Part shown: piece by piece, positions 1 to 8,212 of the stretch
Position numbering within the stretch: position 1 is the first letter of the stretch
Layout: the number at the start of each line of letters is the position of its first letter
DNA from: Candidatus Woesebacteria bacterium
GTDB lineage: Bacteria; Patescibacteriota; Microgenomatia; UBA1400; UBA12028
Length of the DNA stretch: 64,000 nucleotides
Assembly: GCA_040006915.1 (NCBI GenBank)
Contig: JBDTWD010000005.1
Location: forward strand, 23,394 to 87,393
Direction of reading: 5' to 3'
Program-made: the position numbers and the translations under genes
The notes under the pieces: generated by a model
Told to the model about the DNA's origin: nothing
The model's database searches: none
Seen by the model: only the letters and a program-made list of their open reading frames with translations

Positions 1-487
1 GTGTCGAAAGTGGAAGGGTAACATCCAAAGAGTCAAACAATTGCGAGAGTTGCGGGAGTAAGAAATAACTTACTCCTAAACCCACTATAGAGGCGGCTGT
101 CAGGACAATCGCAGGATACAGTAACACACCCTGGATTTTTTTTCGCGATTCATATTCTTTGCGTAGCTGTATGGCAAGATATCCGAGATTTGCATCCAGA
201 GTTCCCGATTCTTCACCAGTCTTAATTAGGCCGATATAGAGTGGATCAAAAACTTTTGGAAATTTGGCGATTGATTGACCGAGTGTATGCCCACCGGCTA
301 CCTCCAAGTACAGAGAAGAAAAAAGATCACGTAAGGCTTTGTTTTGGGTTTGATCACGTAATCCCGCCAACGCATCAGCTAAGGGAATCCCACTTTTGAT
401 CATGATGCTTAAATGTTTGGTAAACAGCAACTTATCTTTAAAGTCGATTCGATTGAAAATCGCAATATTTTGATTGAGTACACTCAT
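1..487 (-). CDS. pilC: Type IV pilus / T2SS inner-membrane platform protein PilC/GspF (N-terminal part; C-terminus lies beyond the window start)
   Basis: Minus-strand translation from the ATG at 487: MSVLNQNIAIFNRIDFKDKLLFTKHLSIMIKSGIPLADALAGLRDQTQNKALRDLFSSLYLEVAGGHTLGQSIAKFPKVFDPLYIGLIKTGEESGTLD, a typical GspF/PilC N-terminal domain. It sits immediately downstream of pilB. Not in the ORF track because no stop falls in the window. Confidence 0.75.
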   Translation of the reverse strand, partial: MSVLNQNIAIFNRIDFKDKLLFTKHLSIMIKSGIPLADALAGLRDQTQNKALRDLFSSLYLEVAGGHTLGQSIAKFPKVFDPLYIGLIKTGEESGTLDANLGYLAIQLRKEYESRKKIQGVLLYPAIVLTAASIVGLGVSYFLLPQLSQLFDSLDVTLPLST

Positions 488-499
488 ACGTAGCTTTTT

Positions 500-2236
500 T
501 CAGGTTTTTGTTGCCCGCAAGACTTCTTCTAAGGTAGTAATGCCACGTTGTACTTTATCGATCCCATCTTCAAACATCGTGGTCATCCCCTCTTGCGCGG
601 CTTTTTGGGCGATAACGTCGGCACTGACTTTCTGATTGATAAGAAGAGAAATAGCGGGACTAATAACGAGCACTTCAAATACACCAATCCGTCCAACGTA
701 CCCAGTTTGGTTACAAACAGAACACCCTTTCCCGTGATACAAGCGAATTTCTGCTTCCGATCCGAAATATTTTTCAATCAGAGCTATATCGACATGTGAG
801 CGTAATTCTTCTCTCGGCATAGCAAAAGAAACTTTACATTTTTCACAAATTTTTCGAACCAGTCTCTGACCGATAACCAAGTTCACCGTCGACGAAACCA
901 GAAAGGGCTCAATATGCATGTCAATCAGTCGAGGTAATGTTGTCGCCGCATTACTGGTATGCAACGTGGACAAAACTAAATGTCCGGTCATGGCTGAATT
1001 GATCGCAATATCAGCTGTTTCATTGTCTCGGATTTCACCCACAAAAATAATGTCAGGATCCTGGCGCAAGATAGAACGTAATCCATCGGCAAAAGTTAAA
1101 TTTGTTTTTGGATTCACTTGAATCTGACCGATTCCATCGATGTCGTACTCTACTGGATTCTCAATAGTGGAGATGTTGCGTTCTCGAACATTTAAAATCT
1201 TCAAAATCGCATAGATACTTGTAGTCTTGCCTGATCCAGTTGGTCCTGTTGATAAAATCATTCCAAACGAACGCGTATAGCTGTGCCGTACTTTCTCCAA
1301 GTCTCGCTCAGACATTCCCAGATCCAAAAGTGAAAATTGGCGACTCTTTGAAGAAAGGAGTCGCATAACAACATTCTCTCCTTTAATCACTGGAACAATC
1401 GAGACGCGAATATCAATATCATCTTCTTCCAAACGGACTTGCAACTTTCCATCTTGGGCACTGAAATGTTCATCTGTCTTTAGTTTTGCAAGAACCTTGA
1501 TTCGTGACACAATTTGCGCATGAAAAGTTTTGGGTACATGTAAGACATCATGCATCACTCCATCAATACGGAAACGTACGACTGTATCGAGTTCCTGCGG
1601 CTCGATGTGAATGTCTGAAGCTTTACTGGTATAGGCATACTCAATGAATAGATCCACCACTTTGGACGCTGGTACTTCTTTTTGCAGTGAGGTTTTTGAT
1701 AATCGTATTTGATCGCTCACGAGTTCACTAAAGGTTTTTTGTAAGCCTTTTTTATAGAGTGATAAGGTCTCCTCAATATCTTTTCTCGTTGCAAAGTAGA
1801 TCTGAACACTCTCGCCAGTTTTTTTAGCAATAAAAGTCACTGGGATTTGAATTTCTGGATTAGACAGCGCAATTTTTATCCCTCGTTCATCTCTCCCAAA
1901 AACCATCAAGCTATGACGCTTCGCCAAAGACTCAGGGATGATATGTAAAAACTCATCGGGGATAGAAATTTTTGATAAGACCACAAATGGAAGTTTCAGA
2001 TGGTCAGCAATGAGCTTGCCTAAATTTTCATCTGCAATCAAATCTTGCCTCAGCAATGTCTCATAAAGCGGTTGCTTGTTCGTCTTTGCAGCAGAATCTG
2101 CGTCTTGCAACTGTTTTTCCGATAGAGATCCGTTCTCTAAAAGGAGCCTATACAATGTTTGATCATCAACACCGTTGTATCGTTCAATTTTGCGTGGAAG
2201 TTCGTCTGTTGGAGTGGCCAGTGGCATACTATCCAC
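500..2236 (-). CDS. pilB: Type IV pilus assembly / type II secretion ATPase PilB/GspE
   Basis: 578 aa. Walker A GPTGSGKTT, GspE signature LRQDPDIIFVGEIRD, C-terminal CxxC...CxxC zinc motif, N-terminal GspE_N-like domain. Confidence 0.9.
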   Translation of the reverse strand: MDSMPLATPTDELPRKIERYNGVDDQTLYRLLLENGSLSEKQLQDADSAAKTNKQPLYETLLRQDLIADENLGKLIADHLKLPFVVLSKISIPDEFLHIIPESLAKRHSLMVFGRDERGIKIALSNPEIQIPVTFIAKKTGESVQIYFATRKDIEETLSLYKKGLQKTFSELVSDQIRLSKTSLQKEVPASKVVDLFIEYAYTSKASDIHIEPQELDTVVRFRIDGVMHDVLHVPKTFHAQIVSRIKVLAKLKTDEHFSAQDGKLQVRLEEDDIDIRVSIVPVIKGENVVMRLLSSKSRQFSLLDLGMSERDLEKVRHSYTRSFGMILSTGPTGSGKTTSIYAILKILNVRERNISTIENPVEYDIDGIGQIQVNPKTNLTFADGLRSILRQDPDIIFVGEIRDNETADIAINSAMTGHLVLSTLHTSNAATTLPRLIDMHIEPFLVSSTVNLVIGQRLVRKICEKCKVSFAMPREELRSHVDIALIEKYFGSEAEIRLYHGKGCSVCNQTGYVGRIGVFEVLVISPAISLLINQKVSADVIAQKAAQEGMTTMFEDGIDKVQRGITTLEEVLRATKT

Positions 2237-2253
2237 TGTAACACATTGGTAAC

Positions 2254-2622
2254 TTATCCGTGAAGTTTAGCTTTGATTTTTTCAACGATTTCATCCAAAG
2301 AAACATCGCTTTTAATGATAAAGTCAGTTGCACCCATTGCCAGAGCTTTCTCAATATCTTCTTTCTGTCCGAGATTAGAGGCAACGATGACAGGAATGCC
2401 ATTCAATTTCTGATCTACTTTCAACTTTGCTAAAACCGCAAAGCCATCCATGGCCGGCATAACCAGGTCAAGCAAGATTAAATCTGGAATTTGTGATTGC
2501 ATTACCAGGAGAGCTTCATTTCCATCAGACGCAATTAGCACTTCAAATCCAGCTTTTGTGAATTTTACTTTATAAGCATTTGATAAGAATTTGTCGTCTT
2601 CAACGACCAATATTTTAGGCAT
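2254..2622 (-). CDS. Single-domain response regulator (CheY-like receiver)
   Basis: 122 aa. Receiver fold with the conserved Asp pocket (VVEDD...LLDLVMP) and a Lys near the C-terminus. No output domain. Confidence 0.85.
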   Translation of the reverse strand: MPKILVVEDDKFLSNAYKVKFTKAGFEVLIASDGNEALLVMQSQIPDLILLDLVMPAMDGFAVLAKLKVDQKLNGIPVIVASNLGQKEDIEKALAMGATDFIIKSDVSLDEIVEKIKAKLHG

Positions 2623-3013
2623 GAGAGGTTTCTTCTATAAGTCCACTGATCATAGGAATAATTTCATCTAAACGATGTTCGGCTTTCAAAATGTATTTTT
2701 TAGCCCCTAACGTCAGCATATTTTTCACTTTGTCTGGACTGGCTGAGTTACTGACTACCATGACGGGTATATTCTCCCACTTCGAACTTTCCTTTATTTT
2801 TTGGAGGAACTCTAAACCGTTCATATCTTTTAAGTAGTAATCAAGCCAAATCGCATTGGGAATCTCATCAATATTCTCCAAGTAGTCCAAAGCCTGCTTT
2901 CCACTGGAACAAGAAAGGACATTAAAATTTGAAAGTTCTAATTTTTTGGTAATTGCATGAAGAAGAAGGTTCTCATCTTCAACAACCATGATCGTCGAAA
3001 TACTTTGCGACAT
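2615..3013 (-). CDS. Single-domain response regulator (receiver domain only)
   Basis: 132 aa. MVVEDENLL...WLDYYLKDMNGLEF receiver motifs. Overlaps the next receiver gene by 8 nt. Confidence 0.8.
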   Translation of the reverse strand: MSQSISTIMVVEDENLLLHAITKKLELSNFNVLSCSSGKQALDYLENIDEIPNAIWLDYYLKDMNGLEFLQKIKESSKWENIPVMVVSNSASPDKVKNMLTLGAKKYILKAEHRLDEIIPMISGLIEETSHA

Positions 3014-3038
3014 AGGCTCACTCTAACACAAGAGTTTA

Positions 3039-5306
3039 TCAAACATCAAGAGCAACCTCTCCTACTTTGGCTGGAGTTCCCGACACAGGTAAGCTAAACC
3101 AAAATGTGGTCCCGTGTTTTTCTTTTGGAACATCCACTTCGTCTTTTGTATGACTCTCGAACCAAATCTTTCCTTGCGATGATTCTACGATCGCTTTTAC
3201 TAAATACAGTCCTAAGCCAGTTCCTTCAGTTTCAATTTTTCTCACATTATCAGCACGGAAAAACCGTTGGAAAAGACGAGACTGCTGCGCTCTTGGTATA
3301 CCGTATCCGTTATCACTGACCTGCGAAATGATCTCTTCGCCTTTGCGGGAGATAAAGACAGTAATATCCCCATCTGCTGGTGTATATTTAATCGCGTTGG
3401 TTAACAAGTTCAGATATACCTGACCTATCAACTTCGGATCGATATTTACCAGTGGGAGATCTTCGTGCACGCTGATCACAAGGTTTTGCTTTTTTTCTTC
3501 CAGTTTTCCTTTCAAATCATTCACGATCTCTTTCACTAATTCTTTCAAATCCGTTGGCTTTGGATCAACGATAATTCTGCCTGATTCTATGCGCGAAATA
3601 TTTAAAAGTGAGTTAACTAATTGAATCATTCGTTCCGTTGATGCTGAAATATTTTTAACAAAATCATTTTGTTCGGTCTCAAGTTTTCCGGCATCTCCGG
3701 CCAGAAGCATTTCTGTAAACCATTTAATTGCTGACAATGGAGTACGCAATTGATGAGACGCAAGTGAAATGAATTCTGTCTTCATTCGATCAATTTCACG
3801 TTCTTTCGTCACATCATGGAAAATTGAAACGGCACCAATTATTTGACCTGCTTTGACGACCGGACTTGAAGTAATATGAATTACTTTTTTTACTCCTCCT
3901 GGACGAATCTCATAGGTTCCTTCGGCCTGTTTTCCGGTGCGCAGCACAATAGATCCAGATCTGTTTTCCGGCAAGATGACATTGCCGTCTATACCATAGT
4001 AGATGTAGGCATCAAACACTTTTTTCCCTACAACGTCCTGATCTTGCAGACCCAGAATTGCAATCAACGATTTGTTTACTTTCAAAATTTCATTTTCAGT
4101 ATTCACTGCCACCATCCCTTCTCCAATACTGGAGAGAATCGCTTCATCTTGGGCATTCGCGTCCAATAGCTCTGCTGTTTTCTCTTGTACTTTCTGTTCC
4201 AATTTCCCATTAAGGTCTTGGAGTGTATCTGCCATATAATCGAAGGCCATAGCCAGTCTTCCGATCTCGTCTCTAGAGGTAACCTTGGCTCGTCGGTTCA
4301 AATCACCTTGAGAAATCTGGATGGCAACGGCCGTAAGGTCATTGATCGGTTTGAGAAATTGAATGAAAAGAAATATAACTGTAGATCCAGAAAGTACCGT
4401 GACGGAAATAATCAATGCCGCAACCTTAAGCGCTGCTGCTACGGCTGGAGCGAAAGCCACCGAAGATGGTTGTTCAATTAACAACACCCACTTATTTCCT
4501 TCATAGGAGAGAAACCCTTTCTCAGTTACCGCAGAACTGAGAGTCTCTATGGTGCTATCAACACTGGTCGTTAGTTCAGAACTCTCTTTCCCTGCTAAAA
4601 CATTCTTCACATTCGAATGTTCTCGATTATTTACCACCAAGATCGCCTCTGGATCATCGTTATTAGCAATTTCTAACCCCTGATGATTATAGATATCTAC
4701 AATGGGACCATGAATGGTATTGAGCACTTCAGAAACTCTAGACCAGGAAAGGTCGGCAACAATCACTCCAATAATTGGTTTCTCTGGATCAAGAATACTT
4801 CGAACCGGGACAGCAAAGTGCATGGTCGGCGTATTTTTTGTGCCTTCTTTTGGTACCACGTCTGAATAATAGACAGAGCCGCTCAAAGCTACAGTAAAAG
4901 CGGCTGTATGTCCAACTTCATTCACAACTTGGGTTCCTATACGCTGAGGATCAGCTGAATACCGAATAACCCCATCAATTCCGATTAAATGAATGTCATC
5001 CCAAGGGCCACTCAGAGACCGCAATTCGCCCACTCGTTTCGAAAGGCTCGAAGAGCCTGAAGCCCCTGGAGTCGAAAGAAAAGTGGTGATCGTTTCATCA
5101 CCAGCCATTGATTGAATATCCAAATACCGTTCATACAGCACGCGATCAACTTTTTCCATAGTCTGACGAGCGAGCTGTTGCTGTTCAGTCTCAATGGACT
5201 GAACCAGGGAAGATTTTACGAGCGCATATGTCGCATATACGAGAAATGATCCTCCGACTAGAACTCCAATTAAAAGACCAAGAATGAATTTATAAATAAG
5301 TTTCAT
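3039..5306 (-). CDS. Sensor histidine kinase (TM – periplasmic Cache-like sensor – TM – HAMP – PAS – HisKA – HATPase)
   Basis: 755 aa. N-terminal TM helix, about 280-aa extracytoplasmic region, second TM. H-box ISLASHQLRTPLSAIKWFTEML. G-boxes DNGYGIP and GTGLGLYLVKAIV. Confidence 0.9.
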   Translation of the reverse strand: MKLIYKFILGLLIGVLVGGSFLVYATYALVKSSLVQSIETEQQQLARQTMEKVDRVLYERYLDIQSMAGDETITTFLSTPGASGSSSLSKRVGELRSLSGPWDDIHLIGIDGVIRYSADPQRIGTQVVNEVGHTAAFTVALSGSVYYSDVVPKEGTKNTPTMHFAVPVRSILDPEKPIIGVIVADLSWSRVSEVLNTIHGPIVDIYNHQGLEIANNDDPEAILVVNNREHSNVKNVLAGKESSELTTSVDSTIETLSSAVTEKGFLSYEGNKWVLLIEQPSSVAFAPAVAAALKVAALIISVTVLSGSTVIFLFIQFLKPINDLTAVAIQISQGDLNRRAKVTSRDEIGRLAMAFDYMADTLQDLNGKLEQKVQEKTAELLDANAQDEAILSSIGEGMVAVNTENEILKVNKSLIAILGLQDQDVVGKKVFDAYIYYGIDGNVILPENRSGSIVLRTGKQAEGTYEIRPGGVKKVIHITSSPVVKAGQIIGAVSIFHDVTKEREIDRMKTEFISLASHQLRTPLSAIKWFTEMLLAGDAGKLETEQNDFVKNISASTERMIQLVNSLLNISRIESGRIIVDPKPTDLKELVKEIVNDLKGKLEEKKQNLVISVHEDLPLVNIDPKLIGQVYLNLLTNAIKYTPADGDITVFISRKGEEIISQVSDNGYGIPRAQQSRLFQRFFRADNVRKIETEGTGLGLYLVKAIVESSQGKIWFESHTKDEVDVPKEKHGTTFWFSLPVSGTPAKVGEVALDV

Positions 5307-5312
5307 AGAGTT

Positions 5313-6632
5313 TTAGCTCTGTGCATTCAGAGGTAAGCTAAACCAAAAGGTAGACCCTTTCCCCTCTTCACTTTCAAATCCGACTTTCCCTCCACAAGCT
5401 TCCACGATCTCTTTGGTGAGATAGAGACCTAATCCTGTCCCTTCTGTATCTATGGAGATGATGTTTTCACCCCGGAAAAATCGAGTGAACACTCTGTGCT
5501 GCATATCCTTGGGGATTCCATACCCCGTATCTTTGAGGGTAGAAACGATATCTGTCGGCGTGGCGCTAATTTGTAAAGTGACATGTCCTCCCTGTGGGGT
5601 ATATTTTAAAGAGTTGCTTAAAAAGTTGACATATGCTTGTTGAATCAGTTTTCTGTCAGTCAAAATAGAGGGAAGGTTCTCGTCTTTGGTAAAGACAAAG
5701 TGAATAGATTTTGCCTGAAAACGCGCAGACATCTCTGCGATGACTTCATCTGCTAGGGTATTCAGATTTGTTGTTTCCGGATGGATTTTAAGTTCTCTGG
5801 CTCCAAGGCGTGAGATATTTAAGAGCGCATCTAAAATAACTCCCATACGATCATTTGACCCTCTCACTTGTGAAAGCATTTTCTGTTGTTTTGGCGAAAG
5901 ATTCTGTACATCCTCATCTTCTAGTAATTCCAAAAGCCAACGCATCTCTGTTAATGGGGTTCGTAACTGATGCGAAGCCAAAGTGATAAACTCCGTCTTC
6001 ATGTGTTCAACTTCTTTTTCCTTCGAAAGAACCGCAGTACTTTGTTCATTTATTGTTTCGTAAATATAAATAAGAACCGTCGATACAAATAAACTTACTG
6101 AGAGTTGACGCAGCACTATGTCTGGATACGGAGTCACGATCGAACCTAAAGATTGGAGTATCCAGGTGCTCAACAGAAGGAAAAAAACCATACTGATCCA
6201 GATAAATCCATCCGCAGCTCCTTCCAAGAAGAATGCTAAAACCGGAAAAGTAAAAAACCAAAAGACTCCAGTATTCGCAATTCCCCCCGTAAAGAGAAGG
6301 ACGGAAAGAACTACGATCATTAAGGTCAGAAGCACTGCAATCGCGGTGTGGAGATGCTTGGTCATGCGCAAAGCAACCACATTCACTAGTCCTAACATCG
6401 CAATGATCACCTCAATGGCTCCGGGTATAACAGCGGCTTCTCGGATATTAATAATCCCGAATAGCAGCAACATACTGCAACCTATGAGAGAGAAAATATT
6501 TAAGAAACGAATTCGACGAGTGCTCAACAGGTCTTCATTGTAGACACCGCCTAACACGTACGAATTCCATAGTGTAGAAAAAAAATGTGGTTTCACTGAT
6601 TCCAGAATAGACTGATTTGTAACCCCATGCAA
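5313..6632 (-). CDS. Membrane-embedded sensor histidine kinase (polytopic TM sensor + HisKA + HATPase)
   Basis: 439 aa. About 6 predicted TM helices in the first 190 aa. H-box ITLASHQLRTPLTEMRWLLELL. GTGLGLYLTKEIVEACGGKVGFESEEGKGSTFWFSLP. Confidence 0.9.
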   Translation of the reverse strand: MHGVTNQSILESVKPHFFSTLWNSYVLGGVYNEDLLSTRRIRFLNIFSLIGCSMLLLFGIINIREAAVIPGAIEVIIAMLGLVNVVALRMTKHLHTAIAVLLTLMIVVLSVLLFTGGIANTGVFWFFTFPVLAFFLEGAADGFIWISMVFFLLLSTWILQSLGSIVTPYPDIVLRQLSVSLFVSTVLIYIYETINEQSTAVLSKEKEVEHMKTEFITLASHQLRTPLTEMRWLLELLEDEDVQNLSPKQQKMLSQVRGSNDRMGVILDALLNISRLGARELKIHPETTNLNTLADEVIAEMSARFQAKSIHFVFTKDENLPSILTDRKLIQQAYVNFLSNSLKYTPQGGHVTLQISATPTDIVSTLKDTGYGIPKDMQHRVFTRFFRGENIISIDTEGTGLGLYLTKEIVEACGGKVGFESEEGKGSTFWFSLPLNAQS

Positions 6633-6667
6633 ACCTTAAATCTCACTTTCCGTCGTATACTATACCC

Positions 6668-7138
6668 ATGCTCACCCGATCCCAGCTTCCTTCTATCCCT
6701 TTTACACAGGGTGCGTATAAAAAGCTTCAACAAGAGCTAGACCGTTTGACCAAACTTCGCGCTGAGGTAGTTATCAGACTTACGACAGCCAGGGAAATGG
6801 GAGATCTCTCAGAAAATGGGGCATATAAATATGCAAAACAAGAGCTTGGTGATATAGGCAGACAATTACGCCAGGTAAATTATCAACTGAAGTTTGGCCA
6901 TGTTGTTACGAGAGCCTCATCAAATAGTATTGATTTTGGCAGTACGGTGACCATAAAAAATGAATCACGAGAACTAACGTTTATGCTGGTCTCTCAATTT
7001 GAATCAAATCCTGCAGAAAACAAGCTTTCTACCGATAGCCCCATAGGTAGTGCTGTTGTAGGAAAAAAAGTTGGCGATACTGTCACCATTACGCTTCCTG
7101 CTGGGGAAACCGAATATACCATCACAAAGGTTTTATAA
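6668..7138 (+). CDS. greA: Transcription elongation factor GreA
   Basis: 156 aa. N-terminal coiled coil with LSENGAYKYAKQELG, FKBP-like C-terminal domain. Length and motif layout match GreA/GreB. Confidence 0.85.
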   Translation: MLTRSQLPSIPFTQGAYKKLQQELDRLTKLRAEVVIRLTTAREMGDLSENGAYKYAKQELGDIGRQLRQVNYQLKFGHVVTRASSNSIDFGSTVTIKNESRELTFMLVSQFESNPAENKLSTDSPIGSAVVGKKVGDTVTITLPAGETEYTITKVL

Positions 7139-7196
7139 GGGAATTTTCTCGTATTCAGAATCATTGCCTAAATTTCAAAGACAGAGCAGATGATAC

Positions 7197-7820
7197 TCAA
7201 ATACTCATGATTTTGTACCAGTCATCCTGTACCCAGAGATACTGATCATCGTTGAGTAAAACAATTTTATATCCTTTTGTATAACAATCTTTCATCGTTA
7301 GTTCATATTCTTTTTTAAAATGATCACTTCCCCAATGCGGGAAAACGACAACATCTGTCATGCCTATGCCTTTTTCATTTTTTAGTTCAGGTGACAGTGC
7401 AGGATCATCTAAGCTCCACGATATTCTGACATCAGGACCGGCTACCAAAGAACCGGCACTCGAACCAATGTAGATCATCCCGTCCTCGACTCTTTGTTTG
7501 AGATATTCAGCACAATTGCTGCGCTGTATTTCTTGTAACAAAAAATAAGTATTCCCTCCAGACATTAAAACTGCATCAACTGGATCTAAAGCTGCTTTTA
7601 CTTCTTCAACGGTTTTATTCGTAACTGAAAAATCTCTCACATCAAATCCCACATCAACGAGCGCTTTACGGTCCGCATGAAGCCAACTTAAGCTCCCAGA
7701 CTCCACTTCTGCCGCTGTGGGTATAAACGCTAACTTCATACCTTTTTTAAAGGTAGGGATATGTTTAATCACATCATGCATCACATCGTAATTGCTGGAC
7801 GTTAAAAACAGATTCTTCAT
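7197..7820 (-). CDS. Peptidase E-like (S51 family, class I glutamine amidotransferase-like) protein
   Basis: SGGNTYFLL and GSSAGS nucleophile-elbow motifs. ATG at 7820 is preferred over the GTG at 7847, which would overlap the upstream VOC gene by 22 nt. Confidence 0.65.
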   Translation of the reverse strand: MKNLFLTSSNYDVMHDVIKHIPTFKKGMKLAFIPTAAEVESGSLSWLHADRKALVDVGFDVRDFSVTNKTVEEVKAALDPVDAVLMSGGNTYFLLQEIQRSNCAEYLKQRVEDGMIYIGSSAGSLVAGPDVRISWSLDDPALSPELKNEKGIGMTDVVVFPHWGSDHFKKEYELTMKDCYTKGYKIVLLNDDQYLWVQDDWYKIMSI

Positions 7821-7825
7821 AGAAG

Positions 7826-8212
7826 TTATTTCTTGATATCTTGCCACAGACCTATTTCATTCCCCTCACTGTCGGTTAAACGTGCGTTCCAACCCATATC
7901 ACCAACTTTGACTTTGGCTTCTGTGATTACGCCACCCATACTCTGAATTTTCGCAATCGTGGCATCTATATCTTCAACACTCATGGTGACGACGGTAGCT
8001 TTCATTTTTGGATCCTGAGTGAGCGCTCCATTAATTTGACCTGGAGTTTGCGGAGAGCGCGTCTCCGGATTGGTTACGCTGGTCGTCGCCATCACATACG
8101 GAACCGTACTGCCTGGATATCCTTCAAGTTTCCAATCAAAAACATCTTGGTAGAATTTTTTCGCTCGTTCAATATCTTGTACCGGGATTTCAAAGTGAAC
8201 TACGGGATTCAT
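7826..8212 (-). CDS. VOC (glyoxalase/bleomycin-resistance) family protein
   Basis: 128 aa. VHFEIPVQD...FYQDVFDW betaalphabetabetabeta module. Typical VOC fold. Confidence 0.65.
   Translation of the reverse strand: MNPVVHFEIPVQDIERAKKFYQDVFDWKLEGYPGSTVPYVMATTSVTNPETRSPQTPGQINGALTQDPKMKATVVTMSVEDIDATIAKIQSMGGVITEAKVKVGDMGWNARLTDSEGNEIGLWQDIKK

Follow-up and report, generated by a model that had tools for sequence, protein, structure and literature searches.

Several receiver proteins of two-component systems are known to bind PilB, the assembly ATPase of the type IV pilus. EmvR, a single-domain receiver of Xanthomonas oryzae pv. oryzicola, binds to PilB, whose ATPase activity it represses (PMC11973254); DrdR, a tandem-receiver protein, binds both PilB and PilT (PMC13507683); and PixG binds PilB1 only when it is phosphorylated, with the receiver-only protein PixH as its antagonist (PMC11181946). 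Thus, the principle of a receiver acting on PilB is already known. Here we describe a locus of the Patescibacteria, or candidate phyla radiation (CPR), in which such receivers are encoded within the pilus operon itself. It is a block of six genes at the start of a 64,000-nucleotide stretch of DNA from Candidatus Woesebacteria bacterium (assembly GCA_040006915.1, contig JBDTWD010000005.1, positions 23,394 to 87,393; hereafter the window), and it encodes two sensor histidine kinases (HK1 and HK2), two output-less receivers (RR1 and RR2), a PilB-type ATPase and the first part of a PilC/GspF-type platform protein. We put at about one in two the probability that this block is a Patescibacteria-specific signalling module within a minimal type IV filament operon, in which phosphorylated RR2 (RR2~P) would act on PilB. 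As judged from gene order and phylogeny, the linkage of the receiver to pilB is real and is conserved across Patescibacteria.

The likeness of this module to EmvR would lie in an output-less receiver with a functional phospho-Asp, input from a HisKA-class kinase, binding to PilB with a change in the ATPase activity of the latter, and independence of both a Chp chemosensory system and PilR. EmvR differs in being the product of an orphan gene, not encoded with pilB, in a diderm proteobacterium that has a full type IVa pilus (PilT, PilQ and PilMNOP), whereas RR2 is embedded in the pilus operon and is conserved in that position across the phylum; the two are likened by function, not by sequence. 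For the RR1/RR2 pair, the best functional analogy is PixG/PixH of the Tax1 system of Synechocystis (PixL, PixG and PixH; PixE, bioRxiv 10.1101/2021.06.11.447907), in which one kinase serves two receivers with divided roles. However, PixL is a CheA-type kinase that works with CheW and a photoreceptor resembling a methyl-accepting chemotaxis protein (MCP), and the Tax1 genes lie outside the pilB operon. In addition, PixG and PixE carry a PATAN domain before the receiver, whereas the window receivers are bare and the window kinases are HisKA-class transmembrane proteins.

Two CheY-like single-domain receivers, PilG and PilH, regulate extension and retraction of the type IV pilus in the Pil-Chp system of Pseudomonas aeruginosa. 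That system needs the CheA-like hybrid kinase ChpA, the MCP PilJ and the CheW protein PilI, none of which is encoded in the window block, and RR1 and RR2 have no specific affinity to PilG or PilH. Neither the block nor the related loci inspected hold a CheA-type kinase with Hpt and CheW-like domains, an MCP or a CheW protein. As for the PilS-PilR type of control, RR1 and RR2 lack both a sigma54-interaction AAA+ domain and a helix-turn-helix (HTH) domain, and no other protein of the block is a regulator of this kind. An initial annotation of the window had stated that the block does without a classical Chp system and without a DNA-binding PilR; for the block both statements hold, the kinases being HisKA-class rather than CheA-like, although 64 kb is too short a stretch to speak for the whole genome. 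In Thermotoga maritima, the stand-alone receiver RR468 is paired and co-transcribed with the HisKA/HATPase kinase HK853. The resemblance of this pair to the window module is structural only, and to our knowledge no output of RR468 has been described.

With regard to the machine, the closest described to that of the window operon, likened by description, is T4P-2 of the Saccharibacteria TM7x, a PilB2/PilC2 machine for host binding that has no retraction ATPase of its own (PMC11623550). The T4P-2 locus also holds PilM2/N2/O2 and recA/X, and the paper makes no mention of a response regulator, a two-component system or a kinase. The arrangement was not found in the literature on Patescibacteria/CPR pili under response regulator, kinase and two-component terms, and the CPR pilus papers examined mention neither response regulators nor kinases. 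It is thus apparently undescribed in CPR. The initial annotation had placed it outside the standard pil regulatory architectures, which agrees with this search; the principle of an output-less receiver acting on PilB, in contrast, has the precedents given above.

Linkage of receivers and pilB across Patescibacteria

The gene order was followed in three independent samplings: 80 genome loci picked by PilB similarity alone (1.31 Mb in total), 80 metagenome loci picked by RR2 similarity alone, and five database contexts as called and Pfam-labelled by the collection itself (loci are numbered with L and contexts with P). Among the PilB-picked loci, pilB is immediately preceded by a receiver-only gene on its own strand at L003, L004, L008, L009, L011-L014, L016, L035, L058 and L069, and the full order kinase-receiver-receiver-PilB-PilC is seen at L003, L011, L013 and L014. 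Fourteen of the 22 receiver-only open reading frames (ORFs) in these loci adjoin a PilB/PilT-family gene on the same strand, whereas random placement would give about 7% adjacency (P~1e-11, a rough binomial figure for loci that are not phylogenetically independent). When loci were picked by RR2 instead, pilB was the next gene in all nine with at least 58% identity, and a PilB/PilT-family ATPase was directly downstream in 33 of the 62 that could be evaluated. All five database contexts, three from RR2 homologues (P0002, P0013 and P0042) and two from PilB homologues (P0169, Daviesbacteria; P0191, Curtissbacteria), have one or two receivers, with or without a preceding kinase, followed by PilB and, on contigs that run further, by a short PilC and pilins. 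The synteny that the initial annotation had suggested looking for in related genomes therefore recurs as the receiver-pilB order, and spans Woese-, Davies-, Curtiss- and Levyi-/Shapiro-related as well as 'Saccharimonadales'-labelled lineages at about 50% PilB identity.

The receivers and the ATPases were also placed in trees. A neighbor-joining tree of 137 receiver-only ORFs resolved four groups. The RR1 clade has 15 members, all in the order HK>RR1>RR, and in the RR2 clade pilB is the next gene in 23 of 24 evaluable members. In a third clade the receiver (REC) gene is located between pilB and pilT, in the order PilB>REC>PilT>PilC, and the fourth, unrelated to pili in its gene context, is considered below. 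In the tree of PilB, the proteins that have a receiver upstream and a short PilC group in one contiguous block, to which the window protein belongs; those of the PilB>REC>PilT order form a second block and receiver-less PilB>PilT proteins a third. Thus the receiver clades coincide with gene context. Within the block of the window PilB, a receiver-only gene is upstream in 9 of 14 PilB-picked loci. That this adjacency spans many lineages and follows the phylogeny of PilB as well as that of the receivers is, by way of comparison, good evidence of a functional link.

The receivers of the third clade are found, for example, at L027 11721-12083, L033 5209-5499 and L121 6078-6440, and the same position between pilB and pilT is occupied at L122, L136, L146, L151, L152, L158, L159 and L167. 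Their hosts are other Patescibacteria, some of them labelled as Saccharibacteria, and the phospho-site residues are kept. In this clade, a bare receiver seems to have been wired independently to the retractile motor pair. A wider reading can be offered tentatively: families of bare receivers may be hard-wired to pilus motors, that of RR2 at a PilT-less operon and a separate clade at a retractile operon, each as a direct phospho-switch that leads from an external sensor kinase to pilus deployment and works without a chemosensory array.

Receivers and kinases of the module

Both receivers are receiver-only proteins with intact phospho-acceptor residues, in agreement with the initial annotation. 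AlphaFold models RR2 as a plain (beta-alpha)5 receiver (pLDDT 96.4), and a cryptic output domain, a possibility that would have changed the picture, was rejected for either protein by Pfam and for RR2 also by the model, there being no room for one. The best structural match of RR2 is RR468 of T. maritima (TM 0.96, 38% identity). In general, the closest solved relatives are generic, namely RR468, the PleD receiver and matches at the level of PhoB, YycF, DivK and CheY in sequence comparison with the PDB and in the fold search. A specific PilG, PilH or CheY identity was likewise rejected, as the PDB sequence search, NCBIfam and the fold search all returned generic receivers; the description of the two proteins as CheY/PilG/PilH-like thus stands at the superfamily level but not at that of PilG or PilH, RR468, PleD and PhoB/YycF being closest.

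The acidic pair, the phospho-Asp, the Thr/Ser and the Lys of two-component receivers are present in both proteins: D9, D10, D52, S82 and K104 in RR2, with F/Y101 as the aromatic residue, and D13, E14, D58, S and K in RR1, with Y. They are conserved in the respective clades. Since the acidic pair, the phospho-Asp, the Ser/Thr, the Lys and the aromatic switch residue are kept across the RR1, RR2 and PilB>REC>PilT clades, these should be competent receivers and not pseudo-receivers. RR1 and RR2 are 37% identical to each other, and the database homologues of RR2, which are 59-69% identical to it, are all receiver-only. Conservation is often higher in the receivers than in the motor that accompanies them: identity to the window is 69% for RR2 against 49% for PilB at L083, and 72% for RR1 and 66% for RR2 against 50% for PilB and 53% for HK2 at L086. 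Small signalling proteins seldom show such a pattern, which points to several constrained interaction surfaces. Distant relatives of RR2 also occur away from pilus genes at L164 and L166 (6983-7819), as a 278-aa protein of two receivers in tandem, an architecture like that of DrdR.

HisKA and HATPase_c score above the Pfam cut-offs in both kinases, and both have the H-box SHQLRTPL, as two-component kinases do. HK1 was called a polytopic HisKA kinase by the initial annotation, and it has MASE6 (40.2 bits, cut-off 27.4), HisKA (51.2) and HATPase_c (93.2). HK2 was described as a Cache/HAMP/PAS kinase. Its HAMP (54.7 bits), PAS (37), HisKA (65.6) and HATPase_c (97.6) domains are clear, but the Cache part is weak: the extracytoplasmic loop matches dCache_1 at 26.9 bits, under the 45-bit cut-off, the call gaining support from a separate dCache_1-HAMP protein of L086 that is 40% identical. 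The kinase cores of HK1 and HK2 are 43% identical and share the H-box MKTEFI[TS]LASHQLRTPL, differing at one T/S position, and this near-identity is consistent with common receiver partners.

Homologues of the PAS-HisKA-HATPase part of HK2, at 36-56% identity, are encoded directly upstream of the receivers in relatives (L003, L014, L085, L086, L089, L094-L098, L105 and L168). By this comparison HK2 is the conserved, predicted cognate kinase of the module, and its N-terminal sensor varies among relatives. At L003 and L014, a soluble PAS kinase takes the HK2 position. At L086 (68-4438) the sensor is split: a kinase-less dCache_1-HAMP protein (421 aa) and a phosphonate-binding periplasmic protein are followed by a HAMP-PAS-HisKA kinase, so that the Cache-like and kinase parts that are fused in the window HK2 are separate proteins there. 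Such a split gives a hint of the ligand class and of sensors being swapped as modules. Relatives usually have one PAS-HisKA kinase, and HK1 with its MASE6 domain is missing from most related loci. The two-kinase module proposed by the initial annotation therefore exists in this genome but is seldom found in relatives, and HK1 would mostly be a lineage-specific addition, giving a second input to the same receivers.

The filament machine and the proposed action on PilB

The genes that follow the receivers are pilB and pilC, as had been annotated, with MshEN (37.6 bits) and T2SSE (417.6 bits) domains in the ATPase and a T2SSF domain in the platform protein. On the NCBIfam models the ATPase reaches 508.5 bits for PilB (TIGR02538, cut-off 675.65) and 505.9 bits for GspE (TIGR02533, cut-off 630.25), and none of the block proteins passes an NCBIfam equivalog cut-off. 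With clear superfamily membership and equivalog scores under the cut-off, it is best described as a PilB/GspE-family ATPase that is not assignable to a curated equivalog. The exact protein is present in NCBI as 'GspE/PulE family protein [Candidatus Woesebacteria bacterium]', and its nearest relatives are from Microgenomates/Patescibacteria. RR2 likewise has an exact NCBI entry, from a Candidatus Woesebacteria metagenome-assembled genome.

Two other features of the ATPase were considered and set aside. The first is an input of cyclic di-GMP (c-di-GMP) through MshEN: the c-di-GMP motif model NF053729, with a cut-off of 38 bits, reaches 19.8 in the window PilB; of five receiver-linked relatives, four lie at 19.5-33.5 and L014 has no match, nor have five PilB>PilT-type relatives. 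Since the motif is sub-threshold in the window and in all ten CPR PilBs scanned, it neither discriminates between the types nor supports c-di-GMP control. The hydrophobic pattern of two c-di-GMP-binding repeats is kept at window 2000-2227 (PilB residues ~24-80), with TLY and PLY at the motif sites. The canonical MshEN motif has RLG where the window PilB has xLY. The second is a docking peptide conserved at the N-terminus of receiver-linked PilBs: none was found, and in the alignment the window PilB has an N-terminal extension that is not conserved. A receiver-preceded PilB ORF of 1324 aa occurs at L134 (7354-11328), where MshEN and T2SSE are confined to the C-terminal 520 aa and the N-terminal extension of 800 aa has neither a Pfam match nor a receiver domain; it may be either a real fusion or an artefact of ORF calling.

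The rest of the machine can be seen in relatives. Downstream of pilB they encode a short platform protein (full-length PilC orthologues are of 338-363 aa), four to six N_methyl pilins and one large pilin-like protein of 476-1399 aa, which in some loci has LVIVD or Laminin_G_3 domains. Neither PilT nor a Pfam-recognisable PilM/N/O was found among the downstream genes examined in relatives, several of which have no Pfam match. Other PilB clades of Patescibacteria belong to PilB-PilT-PilC operons, whereas the relatives of the window clade have no PilT in the operon, which thus differs from retractile type IVa pilus operons, in which PilT is encoded with PilB and PilC. As read from its genes, the machine is a type IV filament system of a minimal, monoderm type.

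The same gene content could fit a different machine, a competence- or secretion-type pseudopilus (ComG- or T2SS-like) in which the receivers gate DNA uptake or protein export. The relatives' operon has no PilT and no recognisable PilM/N/O, its run of small N_methyl pilins is comG-like, the platform protein is about the size of ComGB, and the ATPase scores alike on the GspE and PilB models. However, the ATPase is of the long PilB/MshE type and has MshEN at its N-terminus, whereas ComGA is short, and the ComG models stay under their cut-offs (ComGA NF041000, 243.7 against 300; ComGB NF041012, 54.1 against 240, for the N-terminal fragment of PilC only). The large pilin-like proteins with LVIVD or lectin-like Laminin_G_3 domains suggest an adhesive tip, and the second pilus of Saccharibacteria, which comes from a PilT-less locus, mediates host binding (PMC11623550). 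A pseudopilus is therefore unlikely, although it survives best of the alternatives.

An outline of how the module would work as a signalling device of an adhesive filament is as follows. HK2 would sense an extracytoplasmic or membrane cue and autophosphorylate on its HisKA histidine, and in this genome the extra MASE6 kinase HK1 would do likewise. The kinases would pass the phosphoryl group to their presumed partners, the output-less RR1 and RR2. RR2~P would most likely bind PilB, or the PilB-PilC complex, and thereby switch filament assembly on or off post-translationally, while RR1 would most likely serve as a phosphate sink or antagonist, or tune the response. The machine under control would consist of PilB, the short PilC and several pilins, including, in relatives, large adhesin-like ones. 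Since no retraction ATPase is encoded in the operon, the controlled step would be extension or assembly. In this outline we infer the phosphotransfer partners, the contact between RR2 and PilB and the sign of regulation from sequence comparison. The interpretation given by the initial annotation, phosphorylation-controlled extension of the pilus, is in this sense partly supported.

Alternatively, the module might act through transcription, with RR1 and RR2 as Spo0F-like shuttles that pass the phosphoryl group via an Hpt protein to a DNA-binding regulator, or it might only autoregulate the operon, the pilus genes being co-expressed with the receivers rather than their direct target. Spo0F and DivK are among the sequence and structure matches of RR2, a tandem receiver pair is typical of relays, and the contact between RR2 and PilB is itself drawn from comparison. 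On the other hand, the best matches of RR2 are RR468, PleD and PhoB-type receivers and not Spo0F, and the block shows neither an Hpt protein nor a DNA-binding response regulator. Searches of all window ORFs (BLAST/HMM) found no further kinase or receiver in the remaining 57 kb, nor another PilB/PilT or PilC homologue or a pilin-like N-terminal motif. Nor was an Hpt protein or a regulator of this type seen in about 30 related loci with flanks of 5-10 kb, which were screened only for kinases, receivers, PilB and PilC, with Pfam on selected ORFs. The strict position of RR2 at pilB, and that of the third clade between pilB and pilT, fit a motor-directed role better, and a relay appears improbable.

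Some observations weigh against a module that acts on PilB. No receiver-PilB fusion exists among the top 120 PilB and the top 120 RR2 homologues. L005, L006, L007, L015 and L059, which belong to the PilB block of the window, have no receiver directly upstream; at L006 a receiver and a kinase are present within the operon, after pilC, and the three others inspected (L005, L007 and L015) have no adjacent two-component genes, so that the module must be dispensable or encoded elsewhere in such lineages. The one exception in the RR2 clade, L097, has an RR2 orthologue followed by a Peptidase_S51-like gene (L097 7439-8002) instead of pilB, which could mean that this lineage has lost the pilus genes by deletion. 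The fourth receiver clade, which is distinct from the pilus-linked ones, consists of kinase-receiver-receiver modules beside the housekeeping genes fpg/holA, ddl and uvrA in other Patescibacteria. As to the unity of the operon, a later pilB start, a TTG at 2156, would leave 97 nt after RR2, which is room for an internal promoter. Also, the single upstream promoter that the initial annotation had proposed to look for did not appear, as there is no consensus sigma-70 match in 6558-6667, a consensus that does not cover CPR promoters.

One example of the non-pilus modules is found at L103 (3133-8244), where a HAMP-only membrane protein, a FIST-domain protein, a HisKA kinase and two bare receivers are encoded upstream of fpg and of holA, the gene for the DNA polymerase III delta subunit; equivalent HAMP-only/FIST modules are present at L114, L119, L138 and L109. 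As these modules have a receiver clade of their own, output-less two-receiver systems seem to be a general signalling format of Patescibacteria. That the window module and the pilus genes are neighbours without a functional link, the former controlling, for example, envelope or nutrient responses and the linkage resulting from compact genomes and joint inheritance, would suit such modules, the same-clade PilB operons without adjacent two-component genes and the rarity of HK1, but is very doubtful, because the linkage persists across lineages at ~50% PilB identity with the enrichment calculated above and with pilB behind nearly every RR2 orthologue, because the non-pilus modules use a separate clade, and because another, independent clade of receivers was captured in between pilB and pilT.

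Layout of the block and implications for pilus control

The six genes are tightly packed on the minus strand, which agrees with the initial annotation of six co-directional genes with short gaps (Table 1). The junctions are of 6 nt (HK1 to HK2) and 25 nt (HK2 to RR1), RR1 and RR2 overlap by 8 nt, RR2 is followed by pilB after 17 nt if the latter starts at GTG or 26 nt if it starts at the ATG at 2227, and pilB and pilC are 12 nt apart. The ATG at 2227 is the start in the public gene call (575 aa); with the GTG, this ATG and the TTG mentioned above all possible, the pilB start is uncertain. For HK1, the true start is probably the GTG at 6557, giving 414 aa as in the public gene call. The non-coding stretch between HK1 and greA is then 110 nt long instead of 35 nt.

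Table 1. Features of the six-gene block and its upstream flank (window coordinates)
Feature	Position	Strand	Description
HK1	5313-6632	-	Pfam MASE6 + HisKA + HATPase_c; polytopic sensor histidine kinase
HK2	3039-5306	-	Two membrane-spanning segments; Cache-like, HAMP, PAS, HisKA and HATPase_c in order
RR1	2615-3013	-	REC-only, 132 aa; Response_reg at residues 8-113 (Pfam)
RR2	2254-2622	-	REC-only, 122 aa; Response_reg at residues 4-116 (Pfam)
PilB-type assembly ATPase	500-2236	-	MshEN + T2SSE hexameric ATPase
PilC/GspF-type platform protein, N-terminal 162 aa	1-487	-	T2SSF 96.8 bits; cut by window start
Divergent intergenic region, HK1 to greA	6558-6667	.	Candidate operon promoter site
greA	6668-7138	+	Divergent from kinase operon

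In a consensus scan, terminator-like sites were absent from every junction, including that between the receivers and pilB, where a terminator would have spoken against the initial annotation; across the scan, promoter- and terminator-like matches were at or below shuffle expectation. The region 6558-6667 is the likeliest site of the operon promoter, because it is the sole non-coding stretch of at least 100 nt adjoining the block, and the six genes would be co-transcribed from there. The operon extends past the window edge. An identical 7-kb Logan metagenomic contig exists and ends in pilB. The block is flanked (window 6633-7847) by the divergent greA and a Peptidase_S51 (PepE-like) gene, and of the ORFs between 11.7 and 27 kb, the ten to which Pfam was applied are housekeeping genes. 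A K/R/T/I-rich antisense ORF of 141 aa at window 6118-6543 (plus strand) is most likely spurious, as it lies wholly inside the well-supported HK1 gene.

CPR/Patescibacteria have few conserved surface machines, and type IV pili belong to these; in Saccharibacteria that have been cultivated, such pili mediate binding to the host, competition and twitching (PMC11623550, PMC9894109). A module leading from a sensor kinase through a bare receiver to PilB is a concrete and testable candidate for the control of pilus deployment, and it probably gives these bacteria a way to switch attachment pili on and off. Its proteins RR2, RR1 and the HK2 core are defined, expressible and assayable, and the related receiver between pilB and pilT occurs in metagenome-assembled genomes labelled as Saccharibacteria, a lineage with genetically tractable members. 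The theme of an output-less receiver acting on PilB, known from Xanthomonas and cyanobacteria, would be extended to a monoderm-like minimal pilus with the receiver gene within the motor operon. If the proposed action of RR2 on PilB is true, this phospho-switch could be the missing link from sensing of the host or environment to attachment in these ultra-small episymbionts.

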